Assembly (NCBI GenBank): GCA_963716395.1 | Contig: OY970309.1 | Location: forward strand, 1,152,001 to 1,216,000 | Source of the DNA: an uncultured Fibrobacteria bacterium | Lineage (GTDB): Bacteria; Fibrobacterota; Fibrobacteria; UBA11236 | Reading direction: 5' to 3' | DNA: 64,000 nucleotides | Shown here: piece by piece, positions 23,832 to 58,539 of the stretch | Position numbering within the stretch: position 1 is the first letter of the stretch | Layout: each line of letters opens with the position of its first letter | Position numbers and translations under genes: made by a program | The notes under the pieces: generated by a model | The model's input: only the letters and a program-made list of their open reading frames with translations | Told to the model about the DNA's origin: nothing | The model's database searches: none

Positions 23832-23994
23832 CGAAGGCCGTATCAAACTTGCGGCCAAAGGGTTCGTGTCAAATGCCGAACCAAATTCTGGAATTCTCGC
23901 CGTTTATCGACTGTGATTTTCCCTGCCGCCCACGTGCGTGGATCGAAGGTATTTTACCAAGACGAGGGGGCGGATTTTCAGCCAGGGGGAAGTC

Positions 23995-25440
23995 ATGGGT
24001 AATAAAAATTTTGGCACGGCGCTAACGATCCTTTTTGTGATGGCTGTCATGGGGTTGGCCGCGCCTTTGCCGACAACGGTGACCTTCACCAATTTTTTCG
24101 GAAACCAGGTCACCTTTCAGAATCCGCTGTATTTCAGCGAGATGCCGGGGAAACCCGGATATTACGTCGTGCTGGAGCAATATTTGGGACAGGTCAGCGT
24201 GGTGCACAAAGAGAATGGAACCTGGGTCAAAACCGTGATGGATACGGTAACCCTTGGTCCCGATGTCACGGCGCAAAATGAAATGGGTCTTCTGGGCATC
24301 GCCTTTCATCCCGACTACGCGACGACGCACAAGTATTATCTGACCTATAATCCCACTACCGCGGCGACCTGGTTGGTGGCCCGGCAAGCCGACACGTCGC
24401 TTATTCGCCGGGACACGACCGTGGCTTCGGTGCATTTTCTCACCATCAACAAGCCCTACACCAATCACAATGGCGGCACCATTGGATTCTCGCCCAAGGA
24501 TACGGGCAGCTATCTGTATTTCGGAACCGGGGACGGTGGCGGCACCAATGGCGATTCACTCAACCGAGCGCAAAGCCCCGATTCGCTGCAGGGAAAATTC
24601 CTGCGCATCGACGTCGATCATCCGGCCAACGGCAAACCTTACGGCATTCCGGCCGACAATCCCTTCATCGACAGCGCCGACTATGCCCCGGAAATTTTTT
24701 CGCTGGGCGAACGCAATCCCTGGAAATGGAGCTTCGATCCGGTGACGGGAATCATGTGGCTGGGGCATGTGGGGCAGGATTTGTGGGAAGCGGCCACCGT
24801 GGTTCCCAAAGGCAGCAACCTCGGCTGGCACGTGGTCGAAGGCGGGCATTGCTATGACCCGGCCACCGGCTGCAGCATGGCCGGCTACCAGATGCCCTTC
24901 ACCAGTTACGAACACGGCGCCTCGACCCTGTTCACGGGATATTGCGTTATCGGCGGTTACGTCTATCGCGGCAATCCGAATTCACCTTTTTACGGCGTGT
25001 ATTTCATGGGGGATAACAACAACGGCAAGGTGTGGGCGGTAAAAACCGACGGCGTGTCGGTGCAAGACAGCGCGTTGGAAGGCACGGTCAGCAATCTCAC
25101 TTCCTTTGGAACCGACTTGGCCGGCAATTTGTACGCCGTAAGCCGCGACGGACCGATCTATGCCCTGGGGGGGCCGGATCTCGTCCCTTCGGCAATTTCC
25201 CAGTTCGCGAAATCCACCCGTCAAAATTTTGCAAATACCACATTAACCTCTCCGGGGGCGCTACTGCCCACAAACTTGTTCGGCTCTTATATTTACGCAA
25301 ATCTGTATTCCCTGGCCGGGAGGCGAGTCGCGATCATCGAGCGAAATAACGCAATAGTCCCTAAAGATATGAAGGCCGGAATGTATATCTTGAAAACGGC
25401 TGGAAACAATTTGAAACCAAGCTTGCTGGTGGTTCAATGA
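23995..25440 (+). CDS. PQQ-dependent sugar dehydrogenase (GSDH beta-propeller) family secreted protein with T9SS-like tail
   Basis: EMGLLGIAFHPD, NHNGG, GDGG, GKFLRIDVD, PEIFSLG.RNPWKWSFD, VIGGYVYRG and SFGTD motifs. Confidence 0.88.
   Translation: MGNKNFGTALTILFVMAVMGLAAPLPTTVTFTNFFGNQVTFQNPLYFSEMPGKPGYYVVLEQYLGQVSVVHKENGTWVKTVMDTVTLGPDVTAQNEMGLLGIAFHPDYATTHKYYLTYNPTTAATWLVARQADTSLIRRDTTVASVHFLTINKPYTNHNGGTIGFSPKDTGSYLYFGTGDGGGTNGDSLNRAQSPDSLQGKFLRIDVDHPANGKPYGIPADNPFIDSADYAPEIFSLGERNPWKWSFDPVTGIMWLGHVGQDLWEAATVVPKGSNLGWHVVEGGHCYDPATGCSMAGYQMPFTSYEHGASTLFTGYCVIGGYVYRGNPNSPFYGVYFMGDNNNGKVWAVKTDGVSVQDSALEGTVSNLTSFGTDLAGNLYAVSRDGPIYALGGPDLVPSAISQFAKSTRQNFANTTLTSPGALLPTNLFGSYIYANLYSLAGRRVAIIERNNAIVPKDMKAGMYILKTAGNNLKPSLLVVQ
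24913..25179 (+). repeat. 267-bp direct repeat, copy 1 (left island boundary)
   Basis: Identical to 35746-36012 except one base (T25107 vs C35940), by manual alignment. Confidence 0.97.
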
Positions 25441-28400: not shown

Positions 28401-28555
28401 TGAATGGAGTCGTATTTACCTGCCGTGGCTTTGAGAGAATCGCCCACGGTCAGGGTCAGGATGGTATCTCCTCCGGAATTCGAAACATTGCAGGTCCACG
28501 CGAAAAAGGCCAAGGAGGCAAAGAAAACCAAGCGAATGAAATTTTTGCGAGTCAC
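25451..28555 (-). CDS. Surface lipoprotein: Ig/cadherin-like repeats plus right-handed beta-helix with choice-of-anchor-Q-like end
   Basis: Lipobox-like FAWTC; D.TPP Ig repeats; DG.SW..AY..LQ.AL, GGA repeats, N..F..N.S; ends SPCINSG...DITGARR...VDMGAYE. Confidence 0.8.
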   Translation of the reverse strand: MTRKNFIRLVFFASLAFFAWTCNVSNSGGDTILTLTVGDSLKATAGKYDSIQIKAVVVNGTDTTNQKVVFHDAYKDSSQLQNLNLGHLPSNNFTIVLTGYRHDSLAIMLELPFTNGKAGAPKLDTLIVPDTAHTQNHKPLMWLALPDSGSTSFQINEGATLALHVMAKDSNAQDSARLLHLQNPLPSACGNPSYDTTSGAFSFKPAFACVDSGGDSVSATFNFVTEDQSHPPLYDTLDIQVTVLDSNSAPKWKADSASLAGKQGKVMSLRLDSLYLGDAEGDSVSFAASLGSISQNPLTWSFTPSFSDSGAKTVTITSTDSHKPPASSHLTLQLSIADSVRVLKVVINSPANGYVTRDSIVIVRWSVNGAAQTSDTTEHFSKEGQNGITRTYHDTLTNNAASDSITVTWDKTPPNKPSVTAPGLTKNQKPTWTWKSGGSGGCGYYRFKLDTAIFSDTVGKADSSFTPASNLSQGRHVLYIEERDVAGNWSAPDSSGIARIDITPPEIVIISPPDSLVTNQSSVQVQWSVDGVVQAAGTKSLNEGVNVIADSATDSAGNSSSMSITVTRRSNVLFVNAAAIAGGDGNSWTSAYKYLQTALGRAQSGQELWVAKGIYKPAAGRSDSDTFDTSFVMKTGVNMYGGFSGKEDDRTLRDWVSNETSLSGERGNPNDSTDNLGIIVFGADNATLDGFVLEKAYTAGYEYNAAMQNAFVSPQVFNCTFRDNNNVQQQYGGGAMLNSGSNANIQNCIFLRNSSQTYATVVLSGGAPTLSNCIFEDNTGPSGALDIEDGTPVIMSCQFISNHPSSTGGVGGVRINSGNTTILNTLFSGNAGNLGSSGGAISFTGSVNLTLENCVFTSNSASTGGAIYGSASTLNMSNCTFMNNSSMNNSGGDLYLNSPTGSAMQATVKNSIFWGSDIYRIVVASDTASVPEGIDSLSISYSDITGGTNSIQKIGAGVIQSMAGNIVDNPLFKNSASPTGLDGKYFTSDDGLNLFAHSPCINSGDTNTADLPATDITGARRVQSGRVDMGAYEQ

Positions 28556-28903
28556 GGCGATTCAAATCACAACCAAAAATCCAATGCGATAGAATAAAAG
28601 GCCGGGATGCCCGACTTCTCGGAAACGCCGAGGACATGTTTGAATCCGCCGAAGGCGGACGAGTTCGACAGGCCTTGCCGAGAAGTCGCCGACCGGCCCC
28701 GGGCATTTAGAATATGATTCGAATTCATTGAATGCTCCCAAGCTCATTTCACCACCTTAGGCCCGCCGCGGTGCAGGTACAAAACACTTGTTGGAAAGCC
28801 TAGAAAATTGGAATCCCGAGTGCCATTTCGAGTTACACAGTATCACGGCTTCGCAAATAAGAATTTTTTCAACCGAACGCATTCAAAAATTGGCGCTTTT
28901 CAG

Positions 28904-28919
28904 GGTGACGTAGGTCACA
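28904..28919. promoter_or_regulatory. CRP/FNR-type box upstream of the PAAR gene
   Basis: GGTGA-cgtagg-TCACA, ending 64 bp before ATG 28984. Confidence 0.5.
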
Positions 28920-28983
28920 ATTCACAGGATTGGTGAAGGGTTACCTTTTTCGGGGAACTTCGTAACCTAACCTCGGAGGCAAC

Positions 28984-30813
28984 ATGGGCAAACCCGCGGC
29001 GCGATTGACCGACAGCACAGCGCATGGCGGCCTGGTCACCGGCCCGGGCTGCCCGACCGTACTCATCGGCAAAATGCCGGCCGCCACCATGGGCGACATG
29101 CACGTTTGCCCCATGCTGACCCCGGGCGTGCCGCCCATTCCCCATGTGGGCGGGCCCATCACCTTGGGCAGCACCGGCGTATTCATCGGCAAGAAACCCG
29201 CGGCGCGCTTGGGCGATATGTGCGTGTGTGTAGGTCCGCCCTCGACCATCATCATGGGATGCATGACCGTGCTCATCGGCGAGGTGGGCAGCGGCTCGCA
29301 GGCCGCCAGCGCGGCCTCGGCATTAGCGGCGCAAGCGGCTAAAGCCACGGGCCCCAAGTCTTTGAAAGCGGGAGATCCTCCGCCGGTGCCGGAAGTGGCC
29401 ACGGAAAACCACATCATCGACTGCGAATTCACCGACGCGGCGGGCAAACCCTTGGCCGGCGTGGGCTATCGCATCAAAGACCCCAACGGAATGGAAATCG
29501 CGGGCGGCAGCACGGTGGAAGGCAAAGGGTATCATCCGGGTTACGCCAAAGCCGGGAGCTTCGAGATTCACGTTTTGTCGCTGAAGAACGCCAAGTGGAA
29601 GAAGAGCAAGGTGAAGATGGGCGAGGCCGCCGAGTTTTCGGTAGAAGCCGACTTGTTCGGAGACCACCCCGAAGTGTATGTGAACATCTACCAGTGCCGG
29701 GGCGGCCTGCGGCGCTGGGTGGCCAGCCAGGTGTTGCCGGTAAAAGGCGGCAAGGCCGAAGGCAAATGGCAGCCGAGTTATGAAGAACTGGGGGTCGAAG
29801 AAAATGACGCGGACGCGGCCGACGCTACGGATGCGGCGCCCCCGACCTATTCGGATCCGGCCACCTATGAATTCGTGTGCGACGGCAACGGCGTCATCGC
29901 GTTATCGGATGACATGCATTTTGTCGACGACCTGGAGATCGAGTTGTTGGACGCGAAGAACAAGGGTGTTCCGAATGCGGATTACGAAGTGGAATTCCCC
30001 AGCGGCGAGGTGAAAAAGGGAAAACTGGACGGAAGCGGCAAGGCGAAGCTGACCGAGGTGGAGCCGAGCCATGTCAAGATTCGGTTTCCGGGTGAAGACG
30101 AAAAGCAGAAGGAAAAGGAGAAAGCGGCGGGTAGTCCATCAAATTCATCAAGTGGGAAGAACAAAAACGAGACAGATGAAAAAGAAGACACTGGCGCGGC
30201 AAAGAAAAAACCGCCTGACAAGTTGGATATGCGCTTCCCGTTAGACGTGGACTTGCGCGAGATCATTAAAACAAAATTTTCATACCGCGAGGGAGAAAGG
30301 CAATTTGGAGCGCCCAGGAATGGTGGCAAGAGAGCTCATGCGGGTTGCGATTTATATGCCCCACTTGGAACGCCGATTTATGCAGTCGCGGACGGGACAT
30401 TCGCCAGATATGCAAATTTTTATGATCAAACCTGGGAAATCGAAATTAATCATGGGGAATTTACAGTTAGGTATGGTGAAGTGCAACCTCCTTGGAATCA
30501 GGCGTCCGAAATGTACGATTACCCTCCAGATCAAAACCAATGTAAAGGCATGCCCCATTTATTTAAACGAGATGAAATAATTAGCAAAGGTCAGTTGATT
30601 GGTTGGATTGGAGAATTACGCAAAGTTGATCACAATGGAAATGTTAAAACTATTAGACCTATGCTTCATTTTGAAATGTATTATAATCAAAGCCAAGGCC
30701 TTTTGACCGACTATTCAAATCTCACTTACGACTTTGTATCAGAAAAAAAATATATGCGAAGAAAGGACTTGCTCAATCCGGCAACGTTTTTGGATCAATC
30801 TTCGGATGCTTGA
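28984..30813 (+). CDS. PAAR-domain polymorphic toxin: PAAR, transthyretin-like domains, Ser/Lys linker, M23-like peptidase tip
   Basis: KPAARLTD, MPAATMGD and KPAARLGD repeats; LEIELLD...VPNADYEV...GKLDGSGKA; RAHAGCDLYAPLGTPIYAVADG...MLHFEMY; GGAGG RBS. Confidence 0.9.
   Translation: MGKPAARLTDSTAHGGLVTGPGCPTVLIGKMPAATMGDMHVCPMLTPGVPPIPHVGGPITLGSTGVFIGKKPAARLGDMCVCVGPPSTIIMGCMTVLIGEVGSGSQAASAASALAAQAAKATGPKSLKAGDPPPVPEVATENHIIDCEFTDAAGKPLAGVGYRIKDPNGMEIAGGSTVEGKGYHPGYAKAGSFEIHVLSLKNAKWKKSKVKMGEAAEFSVEADLFGDHPEVYVNIYQCRGGLRRWVASQVLPVKGGKAEGKWQPSYEELGVEENDADAADATDAAPPTYSDPATYEFVCDGNGVIALSDDMHFVDDLEIELLDAKNKGVPNADYEVEFPSGEVKKGKLDGSGKAKLTEVEPSHVKIRFPGEDEKQKEKEKAAGSPSNSSSGKNKNETDEKEDTGAAKKKPPDKLDMRFPLDVDLREIIKTKFSYREGERQFGAPRNGGKRAHAGCDLYAPLGTPIYAVADGTFARYANFYDQTWEIEINHGEFTVRYGEVQPPWNQASEMYDYPPDQNQCKGMPHLFKRDEIISKGQLIGWIGELRKVDHNGNVKTIRPMLHFEMYYNQSQGLLTDYSNLTYDFVSEKKYMRRKDLLNPATFLDQSSDA
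30037..30131 (+). repeat. 95-bp pre-toxin homology arm (parent copy)
   Basis: Matches 31371-31465 at 88/95 positions by manual alignment. Confidence 0.95.
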
Positions 30814-30814
30814 T

Positions 30815-31321
30815 ATGCACAGACCCTTTAAAAAGGTTGTAATTATAATTACAGGAGCACTTTATATCTTGGCCAATGCAGCCGATTATTCTTTCAAAAT
30901 TCTTTCTAAAGACAATCCTGATCACCTCAAAGAAATTAAAAGGATGTACGTCGAAGGGAAATTAAAGCCCGAAGAAAATAATAGTTTCGGAGATGGGAAG
31001 AGAACAGATCTGGGCTATGAAATAATTTCAGAAAAACCCGATCTATGGTGTTTATGTTTTGCTTATTATCCGGGTCCAAGTCCGGATTCAAATCGGGTGC
31101 TTGACGCAATCGAGTGGAAGTCGAAAAGAGGAATTTTCATTGATATTACAGATTGTGCTTCCAAGCTCAATATCAACGAGATAATTCCGGCACTAGTTAC
31201 CAAAAAAAACGGAAAGACTATTGTTCTTAGGGCATGGGTAGGCAATCCCATGACTGAAAAATTCGAGGCCGTCCCAAAATCGGCTGTAAACTGTAGAGAC
31301 GAAAACGAAGACGAAGATTAA
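30815..31321 (+). CDS. Putative periplasmic immunity protein for the M23 tip
   Basis: Directly follows the toxin stop; signal peptide (KKVVIIITGALYILANA); several Cys; AT-rich. Confidence 0.7.
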   Translation: MHRPFKKVVIIITGALYILANAADYSFKILSKDNPDHLKEIKRMYVEGKLKPEENNSFGDGKRTDLGYEIISEKPDLWCLCFAYYPGPSPDSNRVLDAIEWKSKRGIFIDITDCASKLNINEIIPALVTKKNGKTIVLRAWVGNPMTEKFEAVPKSAVNCRDENEDED

Positions 31322-31370
31322 TGGATTAGAGTTCATCACTAGGTAGAAGCGGAAAAGTTTGGATACCCAA

Positions 31371-32016
31371 GGCAAGGCGAAGCTGACCGAGGTGGAGCCG
31401 AGCCATGTCAAGATTCGGTTTCCCGGCGAGGATGCGAAGCAGAAGGAAAAGGAGAAGGCGGCGGGGGGTGGGTCGGGAGATTCTAACAAAAAAACCACCA
31501 TGGCTACAAATTGCGGAAGATGAAGCACGGAGATGGAAAGGACAATTAGAATCAGAGATTTCCAAATCCATGAATTATCATCAAGAAGTTGGGGTTAACA
31601 TTCCTAATCTCATCGGGAACGATCATCCTTGGTGCGCGTCATTCGTTAATTATTGTCTGCAAAAAACAGGGTTTAAAATTTCCCATCCTCCTGCACTTGC
31701 CCGATCGTTTTTAAACGATCCGAACTTTTTGTTGCTTGACCAGCCAATTTTCGGGGCAATTGCAGTAGTCGGAAACCATCACGTGGCTTTCATATACGCT
31801 TATGAATCGGCGACACGACTACCGATACTTCTCGGCGGTAATCAATCAGATCAAATCAATTTCAAAAGATTTTCAGGAGGAATAACCTACCACATTCCGG
31901 TGGATTATCATTACCACGAAGAAACGCTGACGGCTCTCAAAACAACATCGGCTGCGAAGTTAAATACTGCATTCGGAATCAGGCTTAACATTAAAGGATC
32001 CAACAGCACTAGGTAG
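31371..32016 (+). pseudogene. Orphan toxin module: homology arm plus TIGR02594-type (NlpC/P60/CHAP-like) peptidoglycan hydrolase, one base out of frame
   Basis: Arm encodes GKAKLTEVEPSHVKIRFPGEDAKQKEKEKAAG; the +1 frame gives KPPWLQIAEDE...PWCASFVNYCL...HVAF...LLGGNQSDQI; no own start or RBS. Confidence 0.8.
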
Positions 32017-32023
32017 AGTGGAA

Positions 32024-32635
32024 ATGGGAAACAAATTCCTTCTTCTTACACTTTTTATTGGTACCGGATCTATTTCTTTTGCAGCCCCGCAGGTCGACAC
32101 CTCCCTATCCGTTCCCCGACAGGTTATCGCAAAAGCCGACGGTAAAATCGAAGGGAAATACTCGTTTTCCGATAAAAAAGGAAACCACCTTTTAATCCTC
32201 ACGAGAACTGCCCATTCAAAATCCGATGGTTCCATTTTCGTAAGACTCCAAGCCATTCAATTTTTGAACATGGGTCAGGATTGGATCGAAGAATGGACAA
32301 TCAAGGATTTCCTGAATTGCGAAGGACTTGATATCGATGCGGACTTTTTAACTTCGTTGACATCCATATCCGATTTGGATGCCAACGGAATTGATGAATC
32401 AACCGTCGCCTATCGCGTAGCTTGCTTCGGCGGCCTCGATCCTAGACCGACTAAAGTTATAATGAGGGAAGGAACAAAAAAATATGCGATTCGAGGAGAG
32501 TCATTGATGCAAATTGGAGGCCAGCCCCCTTATGGTGGAGATTTCAAAGCCGATTCCACGCTGGACTCAATACCCATTTTCCGTAAATATTTGCTTGCGA
32601 TTTGGAAAAAGGCGGCAAATATCGAAATTAAATAG
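32024..32635 (+). CDS. Putative periplasmic immunity protein for the TIGR02594 module
   Basis: Signal peptide (KFLLLTLFIGTGSISFA), starts 7 bp after the toxin stop; DLDANGIDE motif; two Cys. Confidence 0.7.
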   Translation: MGNKFLLLTLFIGTGSISFAAPQVDTSLSVPRQVIAKADGKIEGKYSFSDKKGNHLLILTRTAHSKSDGSIFVRLQAIQFLNMGQDWIEEWTIKDFLNCEGLDIDADFLTSLTSISDLDANGIDESTVAYRVACFGGLDPRPTKVIMREGTKKYAIRGESLMQIGGQPPYGGDFKADSTLDSIPIFRKYLLAIWKKAANIEIK

Positions 32636-32646
32636 TTCGTATTCCG

Positions 32647-33186
32647 TTGGGAACAGGAACGAAGAATTCGAGGAAGGCGGCGGCCGGGTCAAAAAGCAGC
32701 GGAAATTCAGGACAAAGTGATAGTGCCGCTGAAAGTTCGAAAAACACGGGTGACGGGAAAAGCGATAAGTCCAATTCAACAGAAAATTCCGATGATCTCA
32801 AAAATTATGACGTGGACAAAGCGATCGCTTATTTAAATGCTCAAGCGCTAAAAGTTCCCCCAAAACCAGGTCAGTGCGCAAAATCTGTTCGAAAATCGTT
32901 GTTGGCGGGCCACATCAATATCGATCCACATCCATTGCTTGCCAAGGAATATGGACCTTACCTGGAAAAATATGGTTTTGTAACGATCGTGGACAGTAAT
33001 TACTTACCCCAAAAAGGAGATATTGCCGTCTTTCAACCATATATTGGACAACAATCACAGGCCGGCCACATTCAAATGTTTAACGGAGAAATCTGGGTTT
33101 CCGATTTCTTTCAATATCATCCAGGCATTTATCCAGGACCAGATTACCGGCAGCAAAAAGTATCCTATGAAATTTACCGGCATTAA
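32647..33186 (+). CDS. Orphan toxin module: Tae3-like peptidoglycan amidase behind a KAAAG-Ser-rich linker (probably no genuine start)
   Basis: DKAIAYL...GQCAKSVRKSL...AKEYG..L...GF...PQKGDIAVFQ...GHIQMFNG..WVSDF.Q...YPGPDYR...YEIYR, the Tae3 pattern with catalytic Cys and His. Confidence 0.8.
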   Translation: MGTGTKNSRKAAAGSKSSGNSGQSDSAAESSKNTGDGKSDKSNSTENSDDLKNYDVDKAIAYLNAQALKVPPKPGQCAKSVRKSLLAGHINIDPHPLLAKEYGPYLEKYGFVTIVDSNYLPQKGDIAVFQPYIGQQSQAGHIQMFNGEIWVSDFFQYHPGIYPGPDYRQQKVSYEIYRH

Positions 33187-33751
33187 TACAATTGCATTTT
33201 TTTCTCTACTGATATCAGGAAATTCATTTTCCGATGACGTAAACCGATATGTCATGAGCGACCCCTTCATGGCAATTCATTATGATCCTGAAATTGTGAA
33301 TTTTGAAAAATGTCCGCAATGGATTATTTCTCAAAACGGCGGAAACGCTGAACCGAAGCAATGGATTTTCGCTATGTGCCCACAGACGAAAGACACCCTC
33401 TACATCGTTTCAGGTTTGGTCAAATTTTGGGACGAAGGTTCTCAAAAACTAGTCGATAGCATTCTGGATCCTGATTTTGGAGCAATTATTAAAACGAGCG
33501 GCAGAAAGGTGAAAGCCCTCGGAACTCCCGACGGAATGATGAGCAAATATTCAAACCTGCCGACCAAAGATGGCCTTTGTTTAGTAAAAGATGCAGTAGA
33601 GCGATATTTAATAGCATTCGGTGGTCCCGAAAATCTTCAAAAGGAAATCCTCGATCAAGGAATTGATACGGAAACCGTGGAGAACCCCGCTCTTGTCAAT
33701 GAATTCAAAAAGAAAGGCGTTTTTATACCGCTGATAAAAAAATCGAAGTAA
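33167..33751 (+). CDS. Putative periplasmic immunity protein for the Tae3-like module
   Basis: ATG overlaps the toxin end; signal peptide MKFTGINTIAFFSLLISGNSFS. Confidence 0.7.
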   Translation: MKFTGINTIAFFSLLISGNSFSDDVNRYVMSDPFMAIHYDPEIVNFEKCPQWIISQNGGNAEPKQWIFAMCPQTKDTLYIVSGLVKFWDEGSQKLVDSILDPDFGAIIKTSGRKVKALGTPDGMMSKYSNLPTKDGLCLVKDAVERYLIAFGGPENLQKEILDQGIDTETVENPALVNEFKKKGVFIPLIKKSK

Positions 33752-33773
33752 ACTTCACGAAGCCTCTTTGACA

Positions 33774-33899
33774 GGACACGCCACAATGTTTACGGACTCC
33801 TTATGGATATCGGATTTTATTCAAAGAGAAATGCGGGGCGGTCCGGATTATCGCGATTTGAAACCACCACACCAAATTTATCGTTGGCAAAATGAGTAA
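33774..33899 (+). pseudogene. C-terminal remnant of a second Tae3-like amidase
   Basis: Own translation GHATMFTDSLWISDFIQREMRGGPDYRDLKPPHQIYRWQNE*, colinear with the end of 32647-33186. Confidence 0.8.
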
Positions 33900-34392
33900 G
33901 CTCACCATCTCTATTTTCTTTCTATCCGTATCCATCTCCTTTTGTGATCCTAGGCCGATACCATCTCCGGAATCCTTTATACGAAACCTCTACGATTGCT
34001 ACGTCCATAATCAAATCCCGGATTTTCTGGGTCAAGCAGGGGACACCTTGTTTTCGCAAAGAATGCTTGATATTATGCGGGCACGAAGCAGGATCGGTTC
34101 AGAAAAGCATGGAATCGGTTATGATCCCCTTTGTCAATGCGATGATTCAACTTTTCCCGGTTACAATATTTCCAAATACGACTACAAATTGGTTCGTCAA
34201 AAAAACGGCGAATATCTTGTAAAGATCGATATTTTCGTGGGCGGTTTCGCCAATGACGTTCAATTGAAACTCGTTGTTATAGGAAATCATTGGGTGATTG
34301 ATGACATCGCTACACATGAATATCCGAGCTTGTTTCGCTTGTTGAGATATGAAATTCGCCATTTAAAAACACCGGGATCTGTTTCCAAATAG
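33892..34392 (+). CDS. DUF3828/Tai3-like immunity protein
   Basis: Signal peptide; PESFIRNLY..Y, FS, YDPLCQCDD and LKLV...WVIDDI pattern; overlaps the Tae3 remnant stop. Confidence 0.7.
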   Translation: MSKLTISIFFLSVSISFCDPRPIPSPESFIRNLYDCYVHNQIPDFLGQAGDTLFSQRMLDIMRARSRIGSEKHGIGYDPLCQCDDSTFPGYNISKYDYKLVRQKNGEYLVKIDIFVGGFANDVQLKLVVIGNHWVIDDIATHEYPSLFRLLRYEIRHLKTPGSVSK

Positions 34393-34564
34393 TCGAATAT
34401 CCACCGGCCAGAAGATTGCTCAATCTTCTTCTCTAATCTTCGATCTTCCCCTGGATTTTCAGGCCGCTATCCACTTCACCCAATGATATCAAGCATGAAA
34501 CGTGTTTTTGGTATAAATTTAGCCCAGGAAAAACGGTGAATTTACCAAAAAACCCTGGAGCAAC

Positions 34565-34975
34565 ATGTACCGGAAAAGTTTCGAAGGTGAAGATCAACTT
34601 TCATTAGAACTCGGATCATTTAATAACCCGTTTTCAAAACATTTGGACCCGGAAAACCGCTGGGTTAAACTTTCACGGCTTATCCCATGGGAGAAATTCG
34701 AGAAGCAGTATAGTGATAAATTCCGACTAGTGGGCCGGCAGACTTATCCATTCCGGATGACCTTGGGCGCTCTTCTGATAGAGACCAAGCTTTCCATCAC
34801 GGACAGGGAACTTGTGGAACAGATTTCGGAGAATCCGTATCTTCAATATTTCCTTGGCATGCCGGAGTATTCAAATCGTTGTCCTTTTGACGATAGTACG
34901 GTAACGCATTTCCGCAAGCGTAGAATCGTGAGTTTGTGTAAGCCGCATGTTCGTCCGATTATTCGGGGGAAGGCG
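34565..34975 (+). mobile_element. IS5-family transposase remnant (DUF772 N-terminus plus internal RIVS...HVRPIIRGKA segment, internally deleted)
   Basis: LDPENRWVKL...IPW...LGALLI...TDRELVEQISENPYLQYFLG...PFDDSTVTHFRKR joined directly to RIVSLCKPHVRPIIRGKA. Confidence 0.85.
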
Positions 34976-35395
34976 GCGGAGGGAGGGGCTGGTGGGTCGA
35001 ATAAGATATCGCCGATAACATCCGACTCTAAAGTGTATGATTCAACTACGGGTGGTTCTGACAAAAGGCAAAGTGAGGATTCAAAAAACGATAATCAAAA
35101 ACCGCCTTGGTTACCAATCGCTAGAGAAGAAATTGGGGTGCAAGAAATTCCTGGTCCGCGAAACAATCCCAGAATAATTCAATATGATGCTTCCACAACC
35201 CTTAAAGCAACCAGTGACGCTGTGGCCTGGTGTTCCGCCTATGCAAATTGGGTTATGCAGCAGGCAGGATACAAAGGCACTCAAAGTGCAAGGGCGCTTG
35301 ACTGGTTAAACTGGAAAGAAGGGGCATTGATAGATAAACCAGCTTATGGCTGCATTGGGGTTATTGAAAAGAAACCCTTCCGAGGGTTATGGTAG
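34970..35395 (+). pseudogene. Truncated TIGR02594-type toxin module fused in frame to the IS5 remnant
   Basis: KAAEGG-linker-KPPWLPIAREEIGVQEIPG..NNPRIIQY...AWCSAYANWV...SARA..W...PAYGCIGV, then ends without the HV.F/GGNQ part. Confidence 0.8.
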
Positions 35396-35745
35396 CATTT
35401 ACTAATGAATGCGATGACATATGGACTTTTACGACATGAAAATCTTGATTTTAAAGGGTGAAAGCTGTGTCGAATGTCTAAATATCAATGCATTTGTTAG
35501 TATCCGAATTGCGCCTGCGAAACATTAACGGATTTGACTTCAGAAAGAATAAAGCAGCTTCAAACTTGGCTGGACGGCACGGAAGAAGGAGATGTATGTG
35601 CAGGCAGTTACCAAATTTAAAACCGAATGAAAAACCAGTGACCCCACCTCTTCAAAAGAATAAAGGGTTCAATTGACAAACGGGCGGGTATAAAAAGCCG
35701 ACGAAAAAGGAAAGAACAACTGGGTATGGGTCGGGTGGCTCGACG

Positions 35746-36012
35746 CACGGCGCCTCGACCCTGTTCACGGGATATTGCGTTATCGGCGGTTACGTCTATC
35801 GCGGCAATCCGAATTCACCTTTTTACGGCGTGTATTTCATGGGGGATAACAACAACGGCAAGGTGTGGGCGGTAAAAACCGACGGCGTGTCGGTGCAAGA
35901 CAGCGCGTTGGAAGGCACGGTCAGCAATCTCACTTCCTTCGGAACCGACTTGGCCGGCAATTTGTACGCCGTAAGCCGCGACGGACCGATCTATGCCCTG
36001 GGGGGGCCGGAT
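35746..36012 (+). repeat. 267-bp direct repeat, copy 2 (right island boundary)
   Basis: 266/267 identical to 24913-25179. Confidence 0.97.
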
Positions 36013-36204
36013 TTGCCGGCGGTATCCTCGGTGTTGCCGGGGCGGAAAACCGGCATGGCCCCGCTCTCTCTTTCCGCCTTGCAAGCGGCGAATCTGCCGC
36101 TGCGCGACCTGACGGGAAAACGCGTGAATAGCGTCCAGGGGGACGGCGTTTACATCTATCAGGAAAAGGGGAAAGAGCCGGCCTTGGTGCCAGTGCTGAA
36201 ATAG
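35746..36204 (+). pseudogene. Displaced 3' end of the PQQ-dehydrogenase gene with an alternative GC-rich T9SS-like tail
   Basis: The repeat continues in frame into PAVSSVLPG...LRDLTGKRV...GVYIYQ...PVLK*; no 5' half or signal peptide. Confidence 0.8.
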
Positions 36205-36213
36205 AGGTTCGCC

Positions 36214-36933
36214 TCAGCGAATCATGGGCCCACGGGCCAGGTACCTTTTGCGTTCCCGCTCGGGAAATTTCTCGATGGCGTAGCGCAGCATGGTGCGCGG
36301 CATGACGGCCGCATACCGATCCAGAAACTTCCGCTCGGCGGCCGCGTCGCGTTTGCCGATTTCGCGCAGCATCCAGCCCACGGCCTTATGGATGAGATCG
36401 TGTTCATCGTGCCGCAGGAGTGCGCAGATTCGCAGGGCCAATCGGAACTCTCCCTGCTTGATGAAGTGAAAGGTCGACAACACGGCCACGCGCCGCTTCC
36501 ACAGATTTTTGTCTTGGGCCAGACGCAGCAGCACATCCAGCCCTTTTTCCCGCATGTGCGGTCCGACGATGTATTCGGCGCTGGAATCCACCAAGTCCCA
36601 ATTGTTCACGCGCTGCAGCTTGCGCAGGTAGAACCTGTAAATTCGATCCCGTTCGGCCGCATTTGCGGTTAGATGTTTTCGCACCAACAACAGCAGGGCC
36701 AGCAGCCGGTCTTCATGCCATTTCGAGTCGAGCAGGGCTGCGACGTCACGCAACGGCAAATGCGAATAGGCGCGCGCCAGTTGGCGCAAAACCGGAACCG
36801 TGAGGCCGCGAAAATGATCGCCTTCGCCGTATTCCCCCGGCCCGGTTTTAAAAAAACGCCGCAGCCCGGCCGACTTCGCTGGACTGGAAAGCGATCGCAA
36901 TTTTCGGCGCAGGTCGTTGATAGTTCCGGTCAT
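36214..36933 (-). CDS. DNA alkylation repair protein (AlkD-like HEAT repeat)
   Basis: RFFKTGPGEYGEGD, NNWDLVD, HKAVGWMLREIGKRD and MPRTMLRYAIEKF motifs. Confidence 0.9.
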   Translation of the reverse strand: MTGTINDLRRKLRSLSSPAKSAGLRRFFKTGPGEYGEGDHFRGLTVPVLRQLARAYSHLPLRDVAALLDSKWHEDRLLALLLLVRKHLTANAAERDRIYRFYLRKLQRVNNWDLVDSSAEYIVGPHMREKGLDVLLRLAQDKNLWKRRVAVLSTFHFIKQGEFRLALRICALLRHDEHDLIHKAVGWMLREIGKRDAAAERKFLDRYAAVMPRTMLRYAIEKFPERERKRYLARGPMIR

Positions 36934-55447: not shown

Positions 55448-56761
55448 CTATTTGCCGATGCAGAAACCCGCGAACAGCCGCTGCAGCACGGCCTCGGGCG
55501 TCACGTCGCCGAGTAATTCGCGCACAGCCCGACCGGCTTCGCGCACCTCGAAGGCCACGATTTCCACCGCGGGATGCGTGGCCAGATTTTCTTCGGCCGC
55601 GCGCAGCCGATCGCAGGCCGCCCCCAGCGCCTGGGCTTGACGCTCGGTGGCCAACAGGACGTCTTCGCCGTCCGCGACCGGCGGAAACAAATGGATTTCC
55701 ACCGCGTGCAACAATTCCCGCAAACCCGCGCCCGTATGTGCCGATACCACCATGAAATCCGGCGGCGCGGCAAATCCGGGTCGGTCGCATTGGGCGGCCA
55801 CCTTGAGCTGGGCCTGATCGGCTTCGGCGCATTCGATGGGTGCGGCGCCGTCGACGACGTAAATCCGCAACTCGGCCTGCGCTAACTGGGCGCGCGTGCG
55901 ATCCATGGCCTGTGCGTCGAGCGCGTCGATGGGGCGGCCCAAACCGGCCGTGTCGATCAGATGCAGAACTCCGCTTTCCACCCGCAGCGGAACTTCGACG
56001 AAATCCCGCGTGGTGCCGGCGGCCTCGGAGACCAGCAAGCGATCCTGCGCCGCCAGCGCGTTGATTAAACTGGATTTGCCGGCATTAGGCGCTCCATACA
56101 CCACGGCGCGGGGCACGCGGCGCCAAGCGCGGCTGCGTTCGCAGCCCTGCAACAGACTTTCCATTTCGGCGCGCAAGGCGCCCAGGCGCGGACGCCACGA
56201 GGCGTAATCGGGATCGGCTTCTTCTTCGGCGAAGTCGGCGTCGAGTTCCAGCCGCGCCGACAGATCGACGAGAGCATCGCGCAGGGTGCGGAAGCGCCAC
56301 GACAACTCCCCTTGCAGCAGGCGCTGGGCATTGCGCAGGGCCGCACGGTTCTGGGCATGCACCATTTCGCCCACGGCTTCGGCCTGCACCAAATCGATTT
56401 TCCCGTTTTCCAAGGCCCGGCGCGTGAACTCCCCGGGTTCGGCCAGGCGCACGTCGGGAACGCCGCACAAGACGCGCAGCAGACTTTCAACCAGCAGCGG
56501 ATTGCCGTGGCAAAAAATTTCCAGTACGTCTTCGCCCGTGGGCGAACGCGGTCCGGGCAAAAGGTGAAAGGTCACCTGATCGAGTATTTCGCCGCGCTGG
56601 GGATCGCAAAACGTCGCCGTATGCAGATGGCGGGGGCGCCAGGTCTTGCGTCCCAAGCAGCGCTGCACGGCTGCGGAGCAGGAGGGCCCCGAAAGCCGCA
56701 GCACGGCCAGACCCGATATTCCGGCGGGCGTGGCGGCGGACGCGATGGTGTCGCCCGTCAT
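55448..56761 (-). CDS. mnmE: tRNA modification GTPase MnmE (TrmE)
   Basis: DTIAS.AT, RLSG, TGED..E..CHG, GEFTRRA, GAPNAGKSSL, GTTRD, DTAG and FCIGK motifs. Confidence 0.95.
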   Translation of the reverse strand: MTGDTIASAATPAGISGLAVLRLSGPSCSAAVQRCLGRKTWRPRHLHTATFCDPQRGEILDQVTFHLLPGPRSPTGEDVLEIFCHGNPLLVESLLRVLCGVPDVRLAEPGEFTRRALENGKIDLVQAEAVGEMVHAQNRAALRNAQRLLQGELSWRFRTLRDALVDLSARLELDADFAEEEADPDYASWRPRLGALRAEMESLLQGCERSRAWRRVPRAVVYGAPNAGKSSLINALAAQDRLLVSEAAGTTRDFVEVPLRVESGVLHLIDTAGLGRPIDALDAQAMDRTRAQLAQAELRIYVVDGAAPIECAEADQAQLKVAAQCDRPGFAAPPDFMVVSAHTGAGLRELLHAVEIHLFPPVADGEDVLLATERQAQALGAACDRLRAAEENLATHPAVEIVAFEVREAGRAVRELLGDVTPEAVLQRLFAGFCIGK

Positions 56762-56772
56762 ACCCGGGAGTA

Positions 56773-58539
56773 TCAAACCTTGGCGGACGTGCGGCGGGGC
56801 GGGCCGTTGGTGACGGTCGCCAACAAAGGTTTGGGTTTGAAGATCCGGGTTTGCATCAGGGTGAACAGATTCGACACCGTCCAGTACACCACCAAACCCG
56901 AGGGAAAAGAACACGAGAACACGAACATCATGATGGGCATGAGCCAGACCATGGCTTTCTGGTTCGGATCGGTGATGGTCAATTTCATCTGCGCCCACAT
57001 CGAAGCCGCCATGAAAAACGGCAGCACCGTCACGCCCAGGGGAAACAGAAACGGCACCTGAACCGCGGGCAAAATCACGTCGGGCCGAGCCAAATCGTGA
57101 ATCCAGCCGAAGAAGGGCGCATCGCGCAATTCCACCGCCCGCCCCAGCACGTTGAACAGGGCCAGAAATACGGGCATCTGCAGCATGGCCGGCAAACACC
57201 CCATGGCCGGCGCCAACGGGTTGATACCCTGCTTCTGGTAATACGCCATCAATTCGGCTTGCGACTTTTGCCGATCGCCTTTGTATTTCTCCTGGATTTT
57301 TTTGATCTCGGGTTGATGCTGCGCCATGCGCCCTGTCGAACGAATTTGGGTCACCGACAGCGGCATGGTGATCAGGCGTACCAGCAAGGTGAGCAAAATG
57401 ATGGCGATGCCGTAATTCGGGATCCAGCGGTAAAAGAGATTCAGCAGGTTGAGCACCAAGCCGCACAATTTGGGGTACCACACGTCGGCGCGAAAAAACC
57501 ATTCATAGCCCGAGAACAGAATCTGTTCGTAATTGCGCCCCATGGCTTTCATTTTTCCGTATTGCAAGGGCAACACCATCACGTCGAAATTCAACCCTTC
57601 GGGGTCATCGCCATGGCCCGACACGCGCAGCGAATAGTGCCGCGGAGCGCCGCGCGCCAAATCCGGTTCGTCCCAGGACGCCGCATCGATGCGATCCGGT
57701 ATCTCTTTGTGGAAATCGAGCAGCACGGCCACGTATTTGCGGCGCATACCCACCCAACGGATGATGCCGCTTTCGGCATTAAAGGTTTTTTCACCGGAGC
57801 CCGACCAGCGCTGCACGGTAACGCCGTTGTCGTACACCACCTGGCTGTAGAATCCCGACGTCAGACCCACACCTCTTCCCTGGGCGATCTTTTCGGTTTC
57901 CTCCAGGCCGCCTTTCCAGTTCAAGGCGTAGTTGGAAATTCCCGAGGGCAGAATCACCTGATGGCCGATGGCCGGCCGGTTGGGGTAGAAGGTATAGCGG
58001 CACGTGACTTTGCCCTGAGGCACAACGGTTGCGAATGAAATCGTGACCGAATCGCTATCGACATGCACCACGCGATCGGTATCGTCGACCCGCCAGATGG
58101 TTTTGGCCAGCGACTCGCTGTCGAGCGTGAGCGTCAGCGCGCCCGGCCCATCGGGCTCGATGAGATCAGGATTGTAAACCGGCTTGCCTTCCAGACTGGA
58201 AATGCTCAGTTCCGCAATGCGGGCCCCTTGGTTGTCGAGCACTGCGGTGAAACGCGGCGTTTCCACGCGTATCAGGCGATGCGGCACCGCGGTGCTGTCC
58301 GTCACCGGGGCGGCCGAAGCCGGGGTTAAGGAAGAAGTGGCCGAAGCCGGGGCCGGAGCGGCGACCGCGGCGGACTCCGGCTGGGGCTGGGGAGCGCGCG
58401 CGCGGGCTTGGGCCAAGGAATCAGATTTTTGCTGCTGCGAATGCTCCAGCTGTTTACGGGCCTGATCGCCTTTGAACTTGGTCCATGCCAGGAACAAGGT
58501 CATGAGCAGAATCCAGCCCAGTATGGTATTGCGGTTCAC
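56773..58539 (-). CDS. yidC: Membrane protein insertase YidC
   Basis: NYGIAIILLT..VR...P, GCLP.LLQMP.F, WIHDL..PD and SGLVVYW..SN motifs. Confidence 0.93.
   Translation of the reverse strand: MNRNTILGWILLMTLFLAWTKFKGDQARKQLEHSQQQKSDSLAQARARAPQPQPESAAVAAPAPASATSSLTPASAAPVTDSTAVPHRLIRVETPRFTAVLDNQGARIAELSISSLEGKPVYNPDLIEPDGPGALTLTLDSESLAKTIWRVDDTDRVVHVDSDSVTISFATVVPQGKVTCRYTFYPNRPAIGHQVILPSGISNYALNWKGGLEETEKIAQGRGVGLTSGFYSQVVYDNGVTVQRWSGSGEKTFNAESGIIRWVGMRRKYVAVLLDFHKEIPDRIDAASWDEPDLARGAPRHYSLRVSGHGDDPEGLNFDVMVLPLQYGKMKAMGRNYEQILFSGYEWFFRADVWYPKLCGLVLNLLNLFYRWIPNYGIAIILLTLLVRLITMPLSVTQIRSTGRMAQHQPEIKKIQEKYKGDRQKSQAELMAYYQKQGINPLAPAMGCLPAMLQMPVFLALFNVLGRAVELRDAPFFGWIHDLARPDVILPAVQVPFLFPLGVTVLPFFMAASMWAQMKLTITDPNQKAMVWLMPIMMFVFSCSFPSGLVVYWTVSNLFTLMQTRIFKPKPLLATVTNGPPRRTSAKV

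Follow-up and report, generated by a model that had tools for sequence, protein, structure and literature searches.

The window analysed here, a 64,000-nt stretch of DNA from an uncultured, soil-type Fibrobacteria bacterium, contains what we read with good confidence as a polymorphic-toxin locus built around a T6SS "specialized PAAR" effector. The locus has the corresponding domain content, direct repeats and a sharp break in base composition. The same genome holds a second PAAR locus and a T6SS, and the tips vary throughout the carrier family. From this anatomy and from knowledge of the protein families, we infer secretion, toxicity, immunity, and the direction and timing of recombination. 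The core reading of the initial annotation, which had proposed a PAAR-tipped polymorphic toxin followed by cell-wall-hydrolase cassettes, is supported, and the Fibrobacterota (FCB) host that it had suggested fits the source names of the homologues. All features described below are on the forward (+) strand of the window.

The effector gene (28984..30813), which we present as the expressed one, is a complete ORF of 609 aa running from PAAR to M23, as annotated initially. It matches PAAR_motif (PF05488; E 5.7e-20, 71.8 bits against a cut-off of 27) and Peptidase_M23 (aa 451–499; E 4.1e-8, 33.7 bits against a cut-off of 28.7). Profiles and an AlphaFold2 model give the order PAAR, disordered linker, three β-sandwiches, charged and Ser-rich linker, and M23-like tip. 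The PAAR domain (aa 1–100; 28984..29283) comprises the Pfam stretch 53–99 and a second stretch, and is β-rich in the model with a pLDDT of ~80. The three tandem β-sandwich (Ig-like or transthyretin-like) domains (aa 143–367; 29410..30084) are modeled with pLDDT values mostly above 90. Their best Foldseek matches are a tandem Ig-like/CnaB pilin (BcpA), the MG domains of complement and α2-macroglobulin, and Ig arrays. The earlier label of transthyretin-like domains was therefore approximately right, in that three β-sandwiches are present, while the closest structures are of the pilin and macroglobulin types. A 2013 catalogue reportedly includes transthyretin-like extensions of PAAR proteins. The carrier model consists of β-sandwiches only, with no YD/Rhs shell, and no Rhs/YD repeat family was found among the Pfam and NCBIfam matches of the protein, in agreement with its annotation as an Rhs-free carrier.

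The variable tip (30139..30813), delimited by the Pfam profile and motif inspection, consists of a linker and the M23-like peptidase. It contains a HAGCD motif, and MLH stands where M23 has HxH, a substitution that may alter catalysis. In six of the nine M23-tipped family members the second motif is MLHFE, and the search pattern did not locate it in the other three. One nucleotide past the effector stop lies an ORF (30815..31321) for a 168-aa protein with a signal-peptide-like leader, immunity candidate 0 (imm0). Its family is very small, with just two members among 1.84 billion representatives. One is identical to imm0, and the other, covering the full profile length, is taken to be the copy at a further PAAR locus in the same genome, whose product is 36% identical to imm0 (E 1.8e-26).

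This second locus shares a constant region with the first. By blastn, 1188 nt (window 28936–30123, genome 54725–55912) are 97.8% identical, and they include a common 48-nt leader (28936..28983) ahead of the gene. The homology stops at 30123, and locus 2 continues with another M23 tip, only 36% identical to the tip in the window. It also has an NlpC/P60 orphan with an open frame and 205 nt of junction homology at 89%, and an additional imm0-type gene for which no cognate tip is present. The six tips of the two loci all belong to peptidoglycan-hydrolase families (two M23, two TIGR02594, one Tae3-like plus a remnant, and one NlpC/P60); an arsenal directed at peptidoglycan had been predicted in the initial annotation.

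The point at which the homology ends lies inside the first copy of a 95-nt direct repeat. This copy (30037..30131) contains the end of the last sandwich and GEDEKQKEKEKAAG. The second copy (31371..31465) is 93% identical and connects the effector gene with the first orphan module. The fall in GC content is located at the first copy: the constant part has 61.9% and the region 30132–35745 has 42.8%, against 59.8% for the whole genome. The switch from GC-rich to AT-rich DNA that had been noticed at ~30131 is thus borne out. Both the repeat and this composition break go further than chance would explain. Because of their low GC, the tip-immunity cassettes are probably foreign. New cassettes would have come in by recombination, for which the constant region would have offered its 3' end as left homology arm. 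Every arriving cassette would displace the older tip downstream, where it would lose its carrier and the toxin would decay, while its immunity gene would be retained.

Four carrier-less tip modules lie downstream of the effector gene: a TIGR02594-type amidase, a Tae3-like amidase, a Tae3 remnant and a cut-off TIGR02594 amidase. Profiles and alignments confirm all four where start-less or decayed toxin modules had been annotated. Orphan tip 1 (31371..32016) has no start and opens with the second junction copy. It matches TIGR02594 with E 4.5e-22 and 78.8 bits (cut-off 70.55) over profile positions 5–123 of 132, and the tips of three relatives are 50–52% identical to it. Its junction and toxin frames are separated by a +1 shift at an A8 run (31487..31494), a break that the initial annotation did not specify and that could be a homopolymer assembly error. 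Immunity candidate 1 (32018..32635; 205 aa) belongs to the NF046077 family (E 2.6e-40), whose genes stand directly behind TIGR02594 toxin domains in five of six above-cut-off matches.

Orphan tip 2 (32647..33186) is an intact Tae3-like amidase of 179 aa, counted from a TTG codon. It matches PDB 4hz9_A (E 8e-19 over 122 aa), and GQCAKSV aligns with GRCAEYV and AGHIQMF with HGHMAIY of that entry; the Cys and His are thus conserved. Its N-terminus retains a junction remnant of ~20 nt (RKAAAG) and a Ser/Gly linker. Immunity candidate 2 (33167..33751; 194 aa) overlaps its stop by 20 nt, and matched no known family, DUF3828 included, in Pfam, NCBIfam or the Atlas. Tip 3 (33768..33899), recognized by its likeness to tip 2, preserves 43 codons from the C-terminal end of another Tae3-like amidase. 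It is 46% identical to the C-terminus of tip 2 (E 4e-9) and carries no junction homology. Immunity candidate 3 (33892..34392; 166 aa) is a candidate member of the DUF3828/Tai3 type. The proposed DUF3828 profile check gave a divided answer: the Pfam score of 20.6 bits is under the cut-off of 26, whereas the Atlas placed it with a DUF3828 cluster at 0.95 with 200 shared features. A PDB sequence search with this gene product gave no match.

Orphan tip 4 (34945..35395) consists of a degenerate junction (HVRPIIRGKAAEGG) and a TIGR02594 amidase. It scores 79.6 bits over profile positions 1–88 of 132 only and ends before the His motif, and is therefore 3'-truncated. It is 27% identical to tip 1. No recognizable immunity gene follows it up to the end of the array at 35745. 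Tip 4 is read in frame behind an N-terminal remnant (~125 aa) of an IS5-family transposase (34565..~34940; DUF772, E 3.9e-15; NF033578, E 4.3e-40 over profile positions 4–106 of 419). This remnant was absent from the initial annotation, and tblastn and blastn found no second copy of it in the genome. The array is bounded by the right copy (35746..36012) of a 267-nt duplication. The left copy is at 24913–25179 with 99.6% identity, and the pair flanks a 10.6-kb segment that contains the PAAR locus.

Of the five tips, all but the last have an intact immunity-candidate ORF directly behind them, abutting or overlapping the tip. The four candidates carry N-terminal hydrophobic leaders, as judged by eye, and none resembles another at E<0.1, which agrees with the earlier description of four unrelated signal-peptide genes behind toxins. 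The linkage of tip and immunity type recurs, with NF046077 behind TIGR02594, a putative DUF3828/Tai3-type gene behind the Tae3 remnant, and an imm0 homologue at the other M23 locus. Decay rises with distance from the carrier: tip 1 is frameshifted, tip 2 has no homology arm, tip 3 is reduced to a 43-codon stub, and tip 4 is truncated.

The orphans, or at least the intact Tae3-like module, may alternatively be separately expressed effectors that are loaded non-covalently onto the T6SS. Free-standing Tae3 is thought to load in this way. Tip 2 is a complete ORF with both catalytic-type motifs aligned to 4hz9_A, its immunity gene is intact, and the paper on Pantoea describes secretion of orphan toxins as cargo as possible (PMC9796082). 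However, the tip 2 frame opens just five codons ahead of the TTG, where there is neither an ATG nor an evident ribosome-binding site, and the junction remnant and Ser/Gly linker at its N-terminus are typical of a fused tip. Moreover, the remaining three modules are frameshifted or truncated, and the number of sites in a promoter scan did not exceed that in shuffled sequences. We therefore consider separate expression of the orphans improbable and return to the displacement of former tips.

The same displacement can be taken further, to an array made purely of displaced tips with no offensive future, and maintained for the protection that its immunity genes would give against kin still firing the toxins in question. 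Every one of the four immunity ORFs is intact but only one of the four orphan toxins, and one imm0-type gene of locus 2 is left over without a matching tip. According to PMC9796082, which cites Kirchberger 2017, the same reasoning has been put forward for other immunity arrays of the T6SS. On the other hand, the NlpC/P60 orphan of locus 2, with its open frame and 205 nt of homology, could recombine into the expressed gene. Orphan 1, with 95 nt of homology, could do so too, since a one-base slip in the A8 run would suffice to restore its frame. A purely defensive array is thus a tentative reading, to which we give rather less than even weight, and it overlaps with the specialized PAAR effector locus rather than excluding it. 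Since displaced tips would decay and immunity genes would be kept, the specialized PAAR reading makes the array largely a record of past warheads and a bank of retained immunity genes. The term "swappable" in the initial annotation was too strong: at most one or two cassettes would qualify, and the rest of the array has no usable homology. At the locus in the window, usable junction homology is found on orphan 1 only (95 nt, frameshifted), while orphan 2 keeps ~20 nt and orphans 3 and 4 are truncated.

The carrier family has 678 matches. Among the best 120 of these, 76 are bare (347–389 aa) and 44 are tipped, and similarity to the query stops at aa ~356–370 regardless of the tip. Among the members with a precomputed Pfam family, the tips represent at least nine different families, including M23, CHAP/TIGR02594, Peptidase_C39_2, DUF4329, chitosanase, VanY, OmpA/PG_binding and calpain-like domains. 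A constant N-terminus with variable tips, as anticipated, is thus a property of the homologues. The expected position of the tips after KAA in relatives did not hold, since in the alignment of the 120 members the KEKEKAAG junction is confined to the study genome. In the same alignment no family-wide demarcation motif of the VENN or DPxGL type was seen at the carrier/toxin border, where the last sandwich ends and variable, low-complexity linkers begin. A search of 37 loci of relatives (20 + 17) revealed no orphan with junction homology; therefore, the family as a whole is not characterized by cassette arrays. The public runs with this stretch gave low-depth soil-metagenome contigs only, and no joints were found in them.

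Delivery had been assigned to a machine encoded outside the window, and a genome search located the candidates. A T6SS core cluster at 3.309–3.323 Mb encodes TssK, L, M, A, B, C, Hcp, and TssE, F and G. A vgrG gene (2,676,661–2,678,817) is accompanied by a DUF2169 adaptor gene. The PAAR gene that relatives keep at this locus is missing, with a PG_binding_1 protein gene directly next, and neither PAAR locus is linked to vgrG or the adaptor gene in the study genome. In relatives, the carrier gene adjoins vgrG and/or DUF2169 in six of nine annotated loci, in the order vgrG-DUF2169-PAAR. TssC is present in 31/31 carrier-positive genomes and the carrier in 0/24 TssC-negative genomes, counts that take in the unpublished genome G025.

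The genome also has an eCIS cluster at ~2.53 Mb (sheath, tube, Pvc16_N, AAA ATPase, spike and gp25), and its only PAAR_motif matches are the two loci studied here (0.055 and 1.181 Mb). The PAAR protein could accordingly tip the spike of this extracellular contractile injection system instead of the T6SS. However, no PAAR was detected in the eCIS cluster, and the PAAR loci are unlinked to eCIS genes. Pvc16_N occurs in just 10/31 carrier-positive genomes, and in 5/30 carrier-negative ones, against the 31/31 for TssC, and the gene order of the relatives points to the T6SS. Peptidoglycan hydrolases acting in the periplasm, together with exported immunity proteins, are described as a fit for interbacterial T6SS effectors (PMC6099711). 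An eCIS spike is therefore highly improbable. Of the two machines left open by the initial annotation, the T6SS is the likely one and the eCIS is not favoured. In the T6SS, the PAAR cone of the 609-aa protein would cap the VgrG spike, and the M23-like peptidoglycan peptidase would reach the periplasm of a neighbour on the three-sandwich stalk and the flexible linker. The gene one nucleotide downstream would encode the exported immunity protein.

Several known systems share parts of this anatomy. PDB 4HZ9 is the Tae3-Tai3 entry, and Tai3 is a DUF3828 protein, as given in 10.1101/2025.03.19.644130. As in this pair from Ralstonia pickettii, tip 2 keeps the Cys and His, and a candidate DUF3828 gene follows the Tae3 remnant. 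In contrast, Tae3 is a free protein whereas the study amidase is a C-terminal module of the PAAR carrier lineage, the intact Tae3-like tip is followed by a gene outside the DUF3828 type, and immunity candidate 3 has QCDD in place of the QDX motif described in that preprint. Like the specialized (evolved) PAAR effectors with DUF2169 adaptors, the study protein joins PAAR and an effector domain in one polypeptide, and its relatives keep the gene order reported for Tde2-type PAAR-like effectors (PMC10433429). However, the study PAAR genes no longer sit at the vgrG-DUF2169 locus and exist as two paralogous copies.

In the Vibrio cholerae model, as outlined in PMC9796082, incoming effector-immunity modules replace the old effector and the old immunity genes stay downstream. 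The surplus imm0-type gene of locus 2 is consistent with such sequential displacement, whereas at the study locus pieces of the displaced toxins also remain. The Rhs, CdiA and MafB polymorphic toxins likewise combine a constant carrier with variable tips among homologues and have carrier-less toxin modules downstream, four at the study locus and one at locus 2. Here too the orphans open with pre-toxin homology (95 and 205 nt, with short remnants on orphans 2 and 4).

A further parallel in layout is provided by Rhs loci in general and by PAAR-Rhs "paar islands" such as that of the Pantoea agglomerans T6SS1, for which PMC9796082 describes a PAAR carrier with a variable C-terminal toxin, an immunity gene immediately downstream, and toxin-immunity modules, start-less or pseudogenised, with the potential to be joined to the main gene by recombination. 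The study locus shares the N-terminal PAAR carrier, the variable tip, the adjoining immunity gene and the start-less modules. Unlike these PAAR-Rhs islands, its carrier is built of PAAR and three β-sandwiches without an Rhs/YD shell, its family has no conserved demarcation motif, its homology arm measures only 95–205 nt, and its loci are detached from vgrG. The locus adds a new member to a known class of bacterial weapon loci.

The source genome is a single contig of 3.75 Mb with a GC content of 59.8%, and the window occupies positions 1,152,001–1,216,000 of it. The complete PAAR gene of the window (28984–30813, the expressed gene) is an open reading frame of 609 residues carrying a PAAR domain (PF05488, E 5.7e-20) and a match to M23 peptidases at residues 451–499 (33.7 bits against a cut-off of 28.7). 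The initial annotation had placed a PAAR domain and an M23-like tip in one complete gene, and both profile matches were indeed found there. The switch from GC-rich to AT-rich DNA that it had located near 30131 is equally clear, with 61.9% GC across 28984–30131 and 42.8% across 30132–35745. A promoter and terminator scan of 28500–36300 was uninformative, with 12 and 11 sites, compared with 9.4 and 9.7 in shuffled sequences.

The constant part of the protein, the carrier, was modeled with AlphaFold2 (residues 1–385, 64 aligned sequences, mean pLDDT 82). In the model, a beta-rich PAAR part (residues 1–100) is followed by a disordered segment (102–130) and three beta-sandwich domains (143–367) with pLDDT mostly above 90, and a short helix spans the EDEKQKEKEKAAG junction. 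The best Foldseek matches in the PDB are tandem beta-sandwich arrays, including the BcpA and EbpB pilins, MG domains of complement and alpha-2-macroglobulin, and Ig receptors. Therefore, "transthyretin-like", the earlier term for these domains, is a fair but loose label; the beta-sandwiches themselves are present in the model. No Rhs or YD family was among the domain-profile matches of the protein; Rhs membership was therefore dropped, and the carrier is Rhs-free as originally described.

M23 peptidases have an HxH at the second motif. In the M23 tips of the present family, H[AG]GCD is conserved and xMLHFE[LM]Y takes the HxH position (window 30643–30663 and the homologous proteins P0002, P0003, P0051, P0072 and P0074). 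MLHFE occurs in all six M23-tipped members in which the motif pattern matched, among nine searched. Because MLHFE replaces HxH, the catalytic activity of this putative M23 clade, in the local tip as in the others, may be altered.

A search with residues 1–385, in which 8000 candidates were scored, returned 678 proteins at E ≤ 0.001. Among the best 120 of these 678, 76 are bare carriers of 347–389 residues and 44 are longer; precomputed Pfam annotation of the longer members includes M23, CHAP, Peptidase_C39_2, DUF4329, Glyco_hydro_46, VanY, OmpA, PG_binding_1 and Peptidase_C2. BLAST similarity to the query stops near residues 356–370, independent of what comes after. In the alignment, the bare proteins end no more than about 15 residues from the last sandwich strand, and the tipped ones run on with variable charged linkers. 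The expectation of a constant N-terminus with variable tips after KAA thus held for the tips, which vary among relatives, but not for the border, as the KEKEKAAG string is not common to the aligned members. The full-length members are mostly from Fibrobacterota by source label, and others are from Ignavibacteria, Zixibacteria and Desulfobacterota.

The junction-bearing orphan arrays look particular to the source genome among the genomes examined, because a search for a further copy of each local carrier end, downstream of the gene, found none in 20 + 17 loci of relatives. In 9 of the 17 further loci, secondary matches lie 3' of the PAAR gene but are not orphan toxins: eight are free-standing sandwich-domain proteins of 236–310 residues that lack toxins, and one is a short frame of 95 residues. 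The free-standing proteins lie a few kb downstream of a bare PAAR gene (loci L068, L069, L070, L073, L075, L079, L082 and L087, in records labelled Desulfobacterota, Ignavibacteria, Zixibacteria or unclassified), and their sandwich domains share 27–39% identity with those of the PAAR protein itself. At another locus, L151, a sandwich protein of the free-standing type is fused to a TIGR02594 tip.

The initial annotation had called for a genome-wide search for VgrG and contractile machinery, and the T6SS core, VgrG and an eCIS were all found. TssK, TssL, TssM, TssA, TssB, TssC, Hcp, TssE, TssF and TssG are encoded at 3.309–3.323 Mb of the genome, and VgrG at 2,676,661–2,678,817; behind vgrG come a DUF2169 gene and then a PG_binding_1 protein. 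DUF2169 proteins are described, in the available part of a review, as adaptors whose genes precede those of PAAR or PAAR-like effectors (PMC10433429). The carrier gene adjoins vgrG and/or DUF2169 in six of the nine annotated loci of relatives, usually in the order vgrG-DUF2169-PAAR-PG_binding_1 protein. In the source genome (2,676,661–2,681,645; L012:6661–11645), PAAR is absent from the vgrG-DUF2169 slot, where about 240 nt are left. The PG_binding/OmpA proteins of relatives carry terminal toxin tips, such as TIGR02594, and by this token are probably cargo effectors.

The eCIS cluster (genome ~2,530,000–2,545,000; L011) encodes a sheath, a gp19 tube, Pvc16_N, an AAA ATPase, CIS_tube, a 276-residue spike, gp25 and Tail_P2_I, and no PAAR-like gene was detected inside it. 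We surveyed 61 genomes, the source and 60 relatives, with one unpublished genome (G025) included in the tallies. These tallies are used for direction only because kin are not independent: the carrier is present in 31 of the 61 genomes, all 31 with TssC, and in none of the 24 TssC-negative genomes, and the eCIS marker Pvc16_N occurs in 10 of the 31 carrier-positive and 5 of the 30 carrier-negative genomes. With the marker in just 10 of 31, delivery of the PAAR protein by the eCIS is unlikely. Within the genus, the carrier is found in none of the 11 other genomes and TssC in one (G002, 84% complete); these congeners (G001–G011) have genomes of 1.9–2.7 Mb versus 3.75 Mb. In the source lineage, the weapon set thus seems to have been either acquired or retained there alone.

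The locus lies within a 10.6-kb segment bracketed by a direct duplication of 267 nt (99.6%; 24913–25179 and 35746–36012), which is part of a 500-residue dehydrogenase-like gene (23938–25440). The segment contains a new 3' end of this gene, a minus-strand gene for a 1034-residue beta-helix/Big_13 protein and the whole PAAR locus; the original 3' end has been displaced and persists as an open reading frame at 35830–36204. This arrangement resembles the product of a single-crossover (Campbell-type) insertion. The congeners are about 65% identical and non-syntenic at this site, and an uninterrupted site could not be traced in them.

All elements listed in the initial annotation are present in the window. 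Behind the expressed gene, orphan 1 (31371–32016), the first carrier-less tip module, exceeds the NCBIfam cut-off for TIGR02594, as first assigned (78.8 bits against 70.55), and a PDB sequence search with this tip gave no significant match. It begins with a direct repeat of the end of the constant part (95 nt, 93% identity; 30037–30131 and 31371–31465). The junction frame is closed by a stop at 31523; the amidase is read in the +1 frame, and the shift between the two maps to an A8 run (31487–31494). Orphan 2 (32647–33186), annotated as Tae3-like, bears out that identity by its alignment with PDB 4hz9_A (E 8e-19), in which the catalytic Cys and His motifs are conserved. The accessible portion of a preprint gives 4HZ9 as the Tai3 crystal structure (10.1101/2025.03.19.644130), and the available part of a review covers the Tae3-Tai3 complex from Ralstonia pickettii (PMC6099711). 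Tip 3 (33768–33899) is a 43-codon stub with 46% identity to the end of orphan 2, and orphan 4 covers only positions 1–88 of the 132 of the TIGR02594 profile. In the same frame as orphan 4 lies the N-terminal remnant of an IS5-family transposase (34565 to ~34940; the first 125 of about 420 residues). It probably came with the low-GC cassette DNA, because it is the sole copy in the genome. Outward from the expressed gene, the junction homology thus runs from 95 nt (frameshifted) through ~20 nt to none (the stub), and ends in a degenerate junction with 3' truncation.

The four genes behind toxins, candidates 0–3 (30815–31321, 32018–32635, 33167–33751 and 33892–34392), had been described as mutually unrelated signal-peptide genes. 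All are complete, have hydrophobic N-terminal leaders as read by eye, share no similarity at E<0.1, and each begins a few bases from the stop codon of the tip in front of it or overlaps that codon. Immunity roles are assigned by gene linkage only, and all four are candidates. An exhaustive profile search of 1.84 billion representatives found two proteins of the candidate 0 family, one identical to candidate 0 and one, of full profile length, taken to be the copy at the second PAAR locus; a word-based homologue search found candidate 0 only. Candidate 1 belongs to NF046077 (E 2.6e-40), named in NCBIfam [quoted passage not shown]. This family occurs in 8 of the 61 genomes, with six matches above the cut-off. 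Because five of these six directly follow a TIGR02594-type toxin domain encoded on their own strand, NF046077 is, judged by gene order, more likely to confer immunity than to make polysaccharide. The observation concerns window 32018–32635 and loci L150, L151, L152, L154 and L157; the sixth match belongs to a tandem pair downstream of a different PAAR effector. TIGR02594 domains in the same genomes are attached to carriers of three kinds, namely PAAR-sandwich, a sandwich on its own and an OmpA/PG-binding protein, which is typical polymorphic-toxin shuffling. Candidate 2 matches no known family, a PDB search gave nothing significant, and its high Atlas score serves as a lead only. Candidate 3 resembles DUF3828 below the Pfam cut-off (20.6 bits) and with a very high Atlas score, and gave no significant match in a PDB sequence search. 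DUF3828 is the family of Tai3 according to the accessible text of the preprint (10.1101/2025.03.19.644130); therefore, candidate 3 fits the Tae3 remnant upstream.

PAAR_motif matched only two genes genome-wide. The second (genome 54773–56491, 572 residues) has 1188 nt in common with the window gene at 97.8% identity, beginning 48 nt ahead of the start codon and reaching the junction (window 28936–30123), and the M23 tips of the two loci share just 36% identity. It is followed by a lipoprotein-like gene (56494–57087), a candidate 0 homologue (57297–57881; 36% identity, E 1.8e-26), an orphan that lacks a start, matches the junction over 205 nt (89%) and encodes an NlpC/P60 domain (PF00877, E 1.5e-6), and finally a leader-bearing gene. 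GC of the variable part is 43.5%, low here too. The orphans closest to the two expressed genes agree with each other at 93% over 113 nt of junction plus linker, an allele unlike that of either expressed gene, and this points to one putative outside source.

The locus is best read as encoding a specialized PAAR effector of the T6SS, in which recombination at the border between carrier and tip replaces one peptidoglycan hydrolase with another. Successive incoming tips would displace older ones, and the displaced modules would decay with distance. The stepwise outward decay of the toxin modules, with all four immunity genes intact, argues for such sequential displacement; the array is therefore mostly history and immunity bank. 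The word "swappable", first used for the cassettes of the window, fits orphan 1 at most, provided that its A8 run can slip or reflects an assembly error, and beyond the window the NlpC/P60 orphan of the second locus. These two, with the two PAAR paralogues, could instead form a within-genome recombination network, in which the A8 run, by strand slippage, would switch the TIGR02594 tip on and off and the array would be a phase-variable T6SS arsenal, not a fossil record. We consider this improbable. If true, a clonal population could switch its spike among two M23 types, TIGR02594 and NlpC/P60. A search of sequencing runs gave two soil-metagenome runs of one study, with shares of 0.06 and 0.05, and no RNA run. 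Their contigs are short, mostly identical pieces that lack joints and are uninformative on recombination, expression and the A8 run; one resembles the orphan junction of the second locus and differs by a few letters.

Read as sequential displacement, the locus documents the turnover of cassettes with unusual clarity. PAAR-Rhs genes trailed by orphan toxin-immunity modules, some pseudogenised, and a proposed recombination of such modules into the main gene are already set out in the available part of one study (PMC9796082), and specialized PAAR effectors are review material in the accessible text of PMC10433429. Our literature search, run in a collection with few subscription journals, found no account of the carrier family or of Fibrobacterota T6SS effectors, and a joint mention of Fibrobacterota and type VI secretion solely in work on another subject. 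What is new is the type of carrier, from a phylum that has received little study, together with the arrangement in two loci and the clarity of the decay gradient. The current understanding of T6SS effectors is not overturned by these findings. They bring into view a carrier family hardly studied so far and offer as leads the probable role of NF046077 in immunity to TIGR02594 amidases, the MLH-type M23 clade, and the candidate 0 immunity family, so far confined to the source genome. The combination of a carrier, an exchangeable toxin and orphan cassettes is well known from PAAR-Rhs, CdiA and MafB. The locus follows the same cassette logic, but its carrier is a compact, Rhs-free protein of PAAR and three beta-sandwiches.
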